A DNA stretch of 13,700 nucleotides from a virus (Duplodnaviria > Heunggongvirae > Uroviricota > Caudoviricetes): the IMG/VR virus record IMGVR_UViG_2603880148_000005, positions 1-13,700 of that record. One strand, given 5' to 3'. Shown here piece by piece: positions 11,488-11,988 of the stretch; the first letter of the stretch is position 1; the number at the start of each line of letters is the position of its first letter. The position numbers and the translations under genes are program-made. The notes beneath the pieces were generated by a model, which saw only the letters and a program-made list of their open reading frames with translations, ran no database searches and had not been told where the DNA came from.

Positions 11488-11988
11488 ATGAAAAGAAAAT
11501 CCCTGTCAGAGATCGACCTGCAAGCCGCCCAGAGACTGAAAGAAATCTGGACGGCGAAAAAAAATCAACTAGGGTTAACCCAAGAGCGTGCGGCAGAAAT
11601 TCTGGGATTTTCGACACAGGGAGCTGTAAGCCATTATCTAAATGGTCAGACACCTTTAAATCTTGAGGCTGTTATCAAGTTCGCAGGGTTGCTGCAAGTT
11701 CCTCCCGAGTCAATCAGACCAGATATGGCCGAGTTGTTACAAATTGTAAGGATGTATCCCCAAGAATCTGGGGAGGACAATGTTGTCACTATATCTGCAG
11801 ATATGGAACAATCGGAAAACGAACTTCCGTTTAATATAGACCCCATGGAGCGGGATTTGCTCCAGACGTTCAGGGCTTTCCCCAAAGAAGATAAAGAGAA
11901 AATGCTTAAGGAAATGAAGGAGAAAAAAGAATCAATTGAAGAAATCGTTGCGCGATGGCTAGCTGCGCAAAAGGGTCGTCGCGCCTAA
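11488..11988 (+). CDS. Lambda-CI-like repressor, DNA-binding domain only; no S24 (LexA-type) peptidase domain
   Basis: 166 aa. Residues about 5-85 (LSEIDLQAAQRLKEIWTAKKNQLGLTQERAAEILGFSTQGAVSHYLNGQTPLNLEAVIKFAGLLQVPPESI) align closely with the lambda CI N-terminal domain as I recall it. The C-terminal 75 aa are acidic/lysine-rich with no Ser-Lys protease signature. Confidence 0.8.
   Translation: MKRKSLSEIDLQAAQRLKEIWTAKKNQLGLTQERAAEILGFSTQGAVSHYLNGQTPLNLEAVIKFAGLLQVPPESIRPDMAELLQIVRMYPQESGEDNVVTISADMEQSENELPFNIDPMERDLLQTFRAFPKEDKEKMLKEMKEKKESIEEIVARWLAAQKGRRA

Follow-up and report, generated by a model that had tools for sequence, protein, structure and literature searches.

The 13,700-nucleotide stretch analysed here, hereafter the window (positions 1 to 13,700 of the IMG/VR record IMGVR_UViG_2603880148_000005, a virus of the class Caudoviricetes), encodes at 11488–11988 a protein of 166 amino acids whose RefSeq label is "helix-turn-helix domain-containing protein" only. 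This protein is very probably the CI-equivalent lysogenic repressor of a lambdoid Escherichia coli prophage and, at the same time, the PaaR-type regulator of a paaR-paaA-parE operon, of which its gene is the first of three, in the cI slot opposite ydaS-ydaT (Table 1). It joins a DNA-binding head of the lambda CI type to a helical C-terminal domain of the PaaR2/DicA/GfoR type, and no S24 peptidase domain is detectable in it. Both the phenomenon and the family are already known, and the combination of these two domains is a product of ordinary lambdoid mosaicism; this particular combination was not found described in the literature, where the RefSeq accession also gave nothing.

Domain architecture of the repressor

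An initial annotation, made from the sequence alone, had described the N-terminal ~85 residues as lambda CI-like, and both sequence and structure comparisons bear this out. A search of 177,635 PDB sequences matches residues 2–90, including the basic arm, to chains of the lambda CI N-terminal domain (1LMB, 1LLI, 3KZ3 and 7JVT; E values about 1e-9, from 9e-10 to 5e-9, with 1.5e-9 for the match to the lambda CI domain), and Pfam identifies HTH_3 (residues 26–74, E value 1e-9) and HTH_31, and nothing else. An AlphaFold model, computed with an alignment of 21 relatives as input, places five helices over residues 8–89 with predicted local distance difference test (pLDDT) scores of 84–93, and Foldseek superimposes this part on lambda CI N-terminal domain structures with template modelling scores of 0.81–0.93, a root-mean-square deviation of 1.1–2.8 Å and 35–39% identity. 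Judged by its sequence and its modelled fold, the head is of the lambda CI N-terminal domain type.

By several lines of evidence, no self-cleaving protease follows this head. Pfam gives no match to Peptidase_S24 (PF00717) in the repressor even at E values up to 1; the same scan, as a positive control, finds S24 with an E value of 2e-28 in the CI protein of an Stx phage, the N-terminal domain of which is 52% identical to the repressor head. The sole Ala-Gly dipeptide (A66-G67) lies within a helix of the head, and neither the sequence nor the modelled helices leave an Ala-Gly cleavage site in residues 90–118. The model folds residues 119–165 into two alpha-helices, unlike the beta fold of S24, so that the protein offers no context for a Ser/Lys protease motif. 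The reading frame allows no protein longer than 166 amino acids, and only 18 bp past the stop codon come the intact paaA and parE genes, which leaves no room for a downstream S24 remnant. A degenerate S24 domain is excluded because the C-terminal domain is all-alpha and homologous to the respective domains of working repressors; a profile of such domains gives only ~0.06% against the S24-bearing CI. Thus, the two errors that might have concealed a peptidase from the initial annotation, namely, a frameshift hiding a downstream S24 domain or a tail that is a degenerate peptidase, are not in evidence. The claim of that annotation that the protein has no S24 domain stands, and its corollary, that RecA-stimulated self-cleavage is impossible, holds in the form that such cleavage is not expected given the lack of both S24 and the linker site: judging from its sequence, the repressor should be blind to RecA*. 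PaaR2, discussed below, likewise has no peptidase motif and shows no response to mitomycin C, as stated in PMC8630535 with reference to Asadulghani et al. 2009.

The remainder of the protein had been described as a 75-residue acidic and lysine-rich tail. The composition is correct (13 E, 5 D, 8 K and 5 R in the last 76 residues) but this is no mere tail. After a linker of about 23 residues (pLDDT below 50 over residues 90–113, with variable and gapped columns in the alignment of relatives), the model shows helices at 119–130 and 133–165 with pLDDT scores of 77–87, and this region is a conserved domain in which a long amphipathic helix comes after the shared motif ..LLxxFxx(L/F)PxxDxE... The C-terminus of the repressor matches that of PaaR2 (133 amino acids) with 47% identity over 87 residues (E value 8e-23), and 34 of the last 52 residues are identical; the alignment is confined to residues 91–166 of the repressor, the heads being unrelated, so that there is no full-length homology. 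The domain also matches the C-terminal third of the NCBIfam DicA model (E value 1.5e-7), and a pairwise comparison with DicA of E. coli K-12 yields 27% identity over 51 residues (E value 2e-5); PaaR2 and DicA are related to each other over the full length. An hhalign comparison of the profile of eleven C-terminal domains with Gifsy-1 GfoR (residues 82–122) gives a probability of 88.7% with an E value of 2.5e-6, against 0.12% for RacR of K-12 and 0.06% for the S24-bearing CI as negative controls. The Gifsy-type prophages with which the protein had been compared initially are therefore an apt parallel. The accompanying comparison with Rac-type prophages does not hold for K-12, where RacR shows no homology to the protein (BLASTP E value 39, in addition to the profile result). 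RacR and DicA are named in PMC3121763 among the Gifsy-type homologs of ~150 amino acids that are called common in E. coli. The C-terminal domain is represented neither in Pfam nor by a solved structure. A phmmer search of the whole library with the 58-residue C-terminal domain finds 10 representatives only, all of the PaaR2 type or fragments, the reach of a single sequence being too limited to chart the family.

Among the closest characterised systems is PaaR2 of the cryptic CP-933P/Sp12 prophage of E. coli O157:H7 (paaR2-paaA2-parE2; Hallez 2010; Jurenas 2021, PMC8630535): the same cI slot, divergent ydaS/ydaT genes and an operon with PaaA and ParE are accompanied by a homologous C-terminal domain, the lack of S24, a leaderless-type placement of the promoter, and OR/OL-type clusters flanking the operon. 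PaaR2 differs in its length of 133 residues, an unrelated XRE-type head and an operator consensus half-site GTTTAGTAA, whereas the window protein has 166 residues, a lambda CI-type head, a 23-residue linker and operators of the AATAGC type. In CP-933P, PaaR2, YdaS and YdaT work as functional counterparts of CI, Cro and CII; PaaR2 binds the intergenic region with ydaS-ydaT as its primary target, and PaaR2 and YdaS form a bistable switch that is independent of RecA and of any antirepressor (PMC8630535). PaaR2 also octamerises, as cited in the same paper.

DicA of the cryptic Qin prophage of E. coli K-12 is also a small non-cleavable CI analogue with a helix-turn-helix head and a short helical C-terminal domain carrying LLxLFxxLPxxEQ. 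It faces a divergent Cro-like DicC, and the early-left operon, as here, starts with ydfA/B/C-like genes and runs to dicB in related prophages; the head of DicA is different, however, the Rem antirepressor acts in that system, and no toxin-antitoxin pair lies downstream of dicA. The Salmonella Gifsy repressors GfoR and GtgR (Lemire 2011, PMC3121763) are small as well (~136–150 amino acids) and are not cleaved upon induction, as expected of the window protein, and the C-terminal profile matches GfoR. They too possess a different helix-turn-helix head, and in Gifsy prophages a dinI-antirepressor module under LexA control comes downstream of the replication genes, whereas the equivalent region of the window (7099–9138) encodes QueH, DUF977 and DUF1627 and contains no LexA box. 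With the CI proteins of lambda and of Stx2 phages (e.g., Lyz12581Vzw), the protein shares the type of N-terminal domain, the OR/OL logic and the leaderless PRM arrangement, and the region upstream of the Stx-phage cI contains related operator half-sites (..CTATT). The differences are the lack of S24 and of the Ala-Gly in the linker, and a C-terminal domain that is helical rather than of the beta fold.

The mosaic origin of the gene is directly visible in the DNA. Compared with a locus of the CP-933P type, the window is similar at 10698–11195 (84%) and 11858–12686 (75%), with no similarity between these segments. The swapped ~660 bp (11196–11857) run from the helix-turn-helix part of the Cro-like gene through the intergenic operators to the repressor head and its linker; the left joint (~11195) falls inside the Cro-like gene and the right joint (11858) inside the part of the repressor gene that codes for the C-terminal domain. 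This is a classical swap of the immunity cassette relative to CP-933P, with the C-terminal domain and the toxin-antitoxin genes shared. The nearest relatives of the head are the S24-bearing CI proteins of Stx2 phages (52%) and the 153-residue repressor of phage Rac-SA53, annotated as "dicA" (54.5% identity to this head); in one distant relative (P0031), a related head is joined to S24. The significance of the locus beyond annotation is small. The gene can be described as encoding the non-SOS-cleavable CI equivalent of a heteroimmune relative of CP-933P that also regulates a PaaA-ParE addiction module, and the locus offers a clean natural case of immunity-cassette swapping with the recombination joint inside the repressor gene, in which operator specificity would go with the head and the mode of inactivation with the C-terminal domain. 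A family definition for the latter would improve prophage annotation and prediction of inducibility, and for prophages that carry this repressor, mitomycin induction through repressor cleavage should not be taken for granted.

In a further group of relatives, of 240–255 amino acids (P0013–P0022; L008, 4001–4735), the same CI-like head precedes an entire PaaR2-like unit with its own helix-turn-helix and helical C-terminal domains, which makes two different helix-turn-helix domains in tandem. The second of these is inserted at the position of the linker, and the 166-residue form looks like the same protein minus the second helix-turn-helix domain.

Putative operators and promoters

The 15-bp palindromic motif AATAGCAnnnCTATT, when up to 2 mismatches are allowed, is found at 11413, 11438, 12536 and 12561, with one further match only in the window, at 6801. 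The scan yields 9 strand-hits against 1.13 expected, a count that is reached in none of 200 shuffles, and four of the sites form two clusters. The two pairs of putative operators, each with a spacing of 25 bp, constitute an inverted repeat on both sides of the repressor-paaA-parE operon. In four independent head-sharing relatives (L008/L009, L010 and L011/L012), three motif sites lie 23–25 bp apart in the repressor-cro intergenic region, and 1–2 more copies (OL) occur right after the cargo that follows the repressor; these relatives differ in cargo and in length. Next to PaaR2, DicA and GfoR, the motif does not occur. As the motif recurs with the shared head and is missing where the head is different, operator specificity, as far as sequence comparison can tell, follows the head domain.

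The cargo slot itself, which corresponds to the position of rexAB in lambda, is occupied by HipA_2 and DUF3037 in L008 (4787–6360), by HigB/HigA in L011 (4612–5339) and by nothing in L010 (4463–4652). In each of the three, OL-like operators sit just past the cargo.

The geometry of the predicted PRM-like promoter predicts a leaderless repressor mRNA; a -10-like hexamer is conserved 6–7 nucleotides before the ATG in the head-sharing relatives, and the leaderless paaR2 mRNA has been demonstrated experimentally (PMC8630535). The sequence of the candidate PR-like promoter (TTTACT-17-TATTAA) resembles that of the PL-like promoter (TTTACA-17-TATTGT) in the inverted OL copy, and the analogue of the latter in CP-933P, PL933P, is described in PMC8630535. 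A conserved YdaT site at the ydaS/ydaT junction (one mismatch to the consensus; the high-affinity site of YdaT and its position are defined in PMC9986795) would imply, in addition, that the repressor operon, like that of CP-933P, has a PRE-like promoter.

Taken together with the behaviour of PaaR2, these features suggest the following course of regulation. The repressor would be transcribed from the PRM-like promoter, probably as a leaderless mRNA, and its lambda-type head would bind the palindromes, two and possibly three at OR and two at OL. The two-helix C-terminal domain would take the place of S24 as the self-association module and could provide for cooperative binding and possibly for OL-OR looping across the 1.1-kb operon. 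Binding would repress the leftward PR-like promoter, which serves YdaS, YdaT, the replication genes and Q, and the rightward PL-like promoter, while the repressor would keep its own operon, including the ParE toxin and the PaaA antitoxin, expressed. With inactivation by RecA* not expected, exit from repression would proceed via competition by the Cro-like protein (bistable, stochastic or stress-biased) and/or via a small antirepressor encoded elsewhere.

Several observations weigh against this assignment or parts of it. The head of the protein is unrelated to that of PaaR2, so that DNA binding, leaderless translation and the oligomeric state are extrapolated. The match to the NCBIfam DicA model is limited to the C-terminus and scores 31.2 bits against a curated cutoff of 101 (PaaR2 itself, at 51.5 bits, is also below this cutoff). 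All Foldseek matches are to the head and none to the C-terminal domain. No PDB chain matches this domain or PaaR2 in the sequence search. Because there is neither a fold match nor a PDB match, the probable oligomerisation role of the domain draws on the PaaR2 behaviour cited in PMC8630535 only. The third OR-like site, ATTAATAATCTTATT, is weak, with 4 mismatches, and the candidate PR-like promoter is below the threshold of the consensus scan.

Lifting of repression and alternative roles

The initial annotation had offered two outcomes for a repressor of this kind, namely, induction by an antirepressor or a locked prophage. This dichotomy is false because bistable switching driven by a Cro-like protein is known for both PaaR2/YdaS (PMC8630535) and DicA/DicC; DicA is relieved by Rem, but also by bistable switching that requires DicC and neither RecA nor Rem; urea and heat relieve it too (PMC10448788). 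The Cro-driven bistable switch is, by analogy, the default expectation for the lifting of repression here, given that no LexA box or antirepressor homolog was found, that the closest prophage is defective, and that the rightward operon is cut by an IS3 element at ~13303.

A dedicated small antirepressor of the Rem or GfoA kind, whose gene would lie beyond the window or in a different prophage, possibly under LexA control and linking the switch indirectly to SOS or to another signal, is possible but somewhat unlikely. The protein has its C-terminal domain in common with DicA and GfoR, the two repressors of the class with demonstrated antirepressors (PMC10448788; PMC3121763). The small Gifsy repressors are not cleaved but are inactivated by LexA-controlled antirepressors, which also act on heteroimmune repressors of different operator specificity (PMC3121763), which is consistent with their recognising a portion that the repressors have in common. 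The searches, which are not exhaustive given that antirepressors are small and diverse and that the window covers only part of this prophage, speak against such a factor. No antirepressor is visible in the window, as had been noted initially: it contains no LexA box, none of its open reading frames matches the PHROG of Rem, and a tblastn comparison of Rem with the window and with the related prophages L013 and L001 produces chance matches only. The proteins of the Gifsy-1 dinI region likewise have no homolog in the window, L013 or L001. Beyond the window, L013 has two LexA-like boxes (one of which is that of the host sulA gene) and L001 has one, which is the chance frequency, and none of these is next to a small gene of unknown function that could be tied to the switch. 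Furthermore, the PaaR2 prophage is reported in PMC8630535 to be unresponsive to mitomycin C.

Two candidates for a Rem-like gene in the window were rejected. The gene beside DUF968 (4455–4733), which is in the position of rem in Qin, is unrelated to Rem, and an antisense open reading frame of 86 codons (3751–4008), flagged as Rem-like with an E value of 0.075, gives no alignment in direct comparison.

An extension of the antirepressor scenario, which we consider doubtful, would see in the C-terminal domain a portable unit governing the mode of induction, one that is freely recombined with immunity-specific heads and offers antirepressors acting in trans their docking surface. If this were true, heteroimmune prophages sharing the domain would be co-induced in polylysogens without RecA cleavage, and early genes in the PL and PR operons would be released.

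The protein could also be viewed chiefly as a regulator of the toxin-antitoxin operon, that is, as the DNA-binding part of a "split antitoxin" rather than a master repressor. The gene is indeed co-operonic with paaA-parE, and PaaA has no DNA-binding domain (PMC8630535). Nevertheless, this view is improbable: the putative operators overlap the divergent Cro-side promoter and the PL-like promoter, the primary target of PaaR2 is ydaS-ydaT (PMC8630535), and the same head and operators occur in relatives with HipA_2 and DUF3037, with HigBA, or with no cargo, which argues that the repressor is independent of the toxin-antitoxin pair. The protein is a prophage repressor first and a regulator of the toxin-antitoxin genes by co-transcription.

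The integrity of the gene is supported by its distribution. The identical protein is the representative of 107 sequences, which come from at least 1000 contigs; the locus is present at 99% identity or higher in 41 complete E. coli genomes, with 100% identity in, among other strains, E. coli O104:H4; and the relatives at 77–89% identity are all exactly 166 residues long. This constant length, together with the identical sequence across many genomes, excludes a sequencing or frameshift artefact. A decayed or truncated lambda-type CI, the protease of which would have been lost by deletion or frameshift in a dying prophage leaving the C-terminal 75 residues as meaningless read-through, might be suggested by the defects of the closest complete prophage with the identical gene (truncated portal and tail genes), by the IS3-family fragment at the end of the window, where similarity to the closest prophage ceases, and by the S24-bearing CI proteins as the nearest relatives of the head in sequenced phages, but is very improbable and already largely refuted by the constant length of the protein, by the intact paaA gene 18 bp downstream, and by a C-terminal domain that is retained at the protein level, always in frame, in relatives down to ~45% identity, is confidently modelled as two helices and has homologs in the functional repressors PaaR2, DicA and GfoR.

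Operon and neighbouring genes

The features of the locus are collected in Table 1. The Cro-like protein is 42% identical to YdaS of CP-933P, its helix-turn-helix half having diverged and only the C-terminal ~35 residues being well conserved. The paaA and parE genes overlap by 1 bp in a TAATG stop/start junction. No defence-system model of PADLOC matches the repressor, PaaA or ParE.

Table 1. Coordinates of the repressor gene, its domains, and the associated sites and genes in the window
Feature	Coordinates	Strand	Description and basis
Repressor gene	11488..11988	+	166 aa; very probable CI analogue and PaaR-type regulator of the downstream toxin-antitoxin pair
Head, codons 1-90	11488..11757	+	lambda CI-type N-terminal DNA-binding domain (sequence and model): five helices and basic N-terminal arm MKRKS
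Linker, codons 91-113	11758..11826	+	acidic, predicted disordered, poorly conserved
C-terminal domain, codons 114-166	11827..11985	+	conserved, two-helix, PaaR2/DicA/GfoR type; probable oligomerisation module
OR1-like operator AATAGCATTGTTATT	11413..11427		over the leftward PR-like promoter; motif scan; same place in head-sharing relatives
OR2-like operator AATAGCATCACTATT	11438..11452		abuts the -35 of the PRM-like promoter; motif scan and relatives
Possible weak OR3-like site ATTAATAATCTTATT	11461..11475		over the PRM-like spacer and the start of the -10; placed by register; low confidence
OL-like pair AATAGCACTGCTATT (12536-12550) and AATAGTAGTGGTATT (12561-12575)	12536..12575		inverted copy of OR1-OR2, just beyond the terminator
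PRM-like promoter TTCAAA-17-TAGAAT	11452..11480	+	promoter scan; -10 ends 7 nucleotides before the ATG
Candidate PR-like promoter TTTACT-17-TATTAA	11411..11439	-	reads into the Cro-like gene; suggested by sequence
PL-like promoter TTTACA-17-TATTGT	12549..12577	+	promoter scan; overlaps the distal operator pair; reads rightward into ydfA/B/C-like genes
Cro-like (YdaS-type) helix-turn-helix gene	11105..11380	-	divergent from the repressor; HTH_3, phrog_35
CII-like YdaT gene	10696..11121	-	PF06254; phrog_163 (CII-like activator), E 1e-44; 88% identical to the crystallised YdaT of CP-933P
YdaT OM-type site TTGATTTTCATGAATCAc	11111..11128		ydaS/ydaT junction, PRE-like position; one mismatch to TTGATTN6AATCAA
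paaA antitoxin gene	12006..12197	+	PF21217 PaaA2, E 1e-21; 84% identical to PaaA2 of O157
parE toxin gene	12197..12487	+	PF05016, E 7e-18; 88% identical to ParE2 of O157
Intrinsic terminator	12502..12529	+	terminator scan; closes the repressor-paaA-parE operon; t_imm analogue

Leftward past YdaT, the window encodes O- and P-like replication proteins, DUF1627, DUF977, QueH, an NgoMIV-type restriction-modification pair, DUF968, RusA, Q and a methylase; rightward, the early operon continues beyond the OL-like pair with ydfA/B/C-like genes. An IS3-family transposase fragment (13303–13700; rve-type C-terminus on the minus strand, 13346–13693) breaks this rightward operon after the ydfA/B/C-like genes, and similarity to the closest prophage ends at 13303.

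Several further features, all on the minus strand, are of note. The NgoMIV-family type II restriction endonuclease and the C5 cytosine methyltransferase (4904–6920), situated within the early-right region of the prophage, are encoded by open reading frames that overlap by ~120 bp. A match to the sok antitoxin RNA of Rfam (6851–7031; 61 bits against a gathering score of 59) overlaps the start of the methyltransferase reading frame and could be what is left of the hokD locus that occupies this position in related prophages. A homolog of the epoxyqueuosine reductase QueH (7099–7785, E value 1e-65) is an unusual metabolic passenger amid early genes. Finally, a tRNA gene (456–528) lies downstream of the methylase of the Q region, comparable to the tRNA clusters that precede the lysis genes in related lambdoid prophages.

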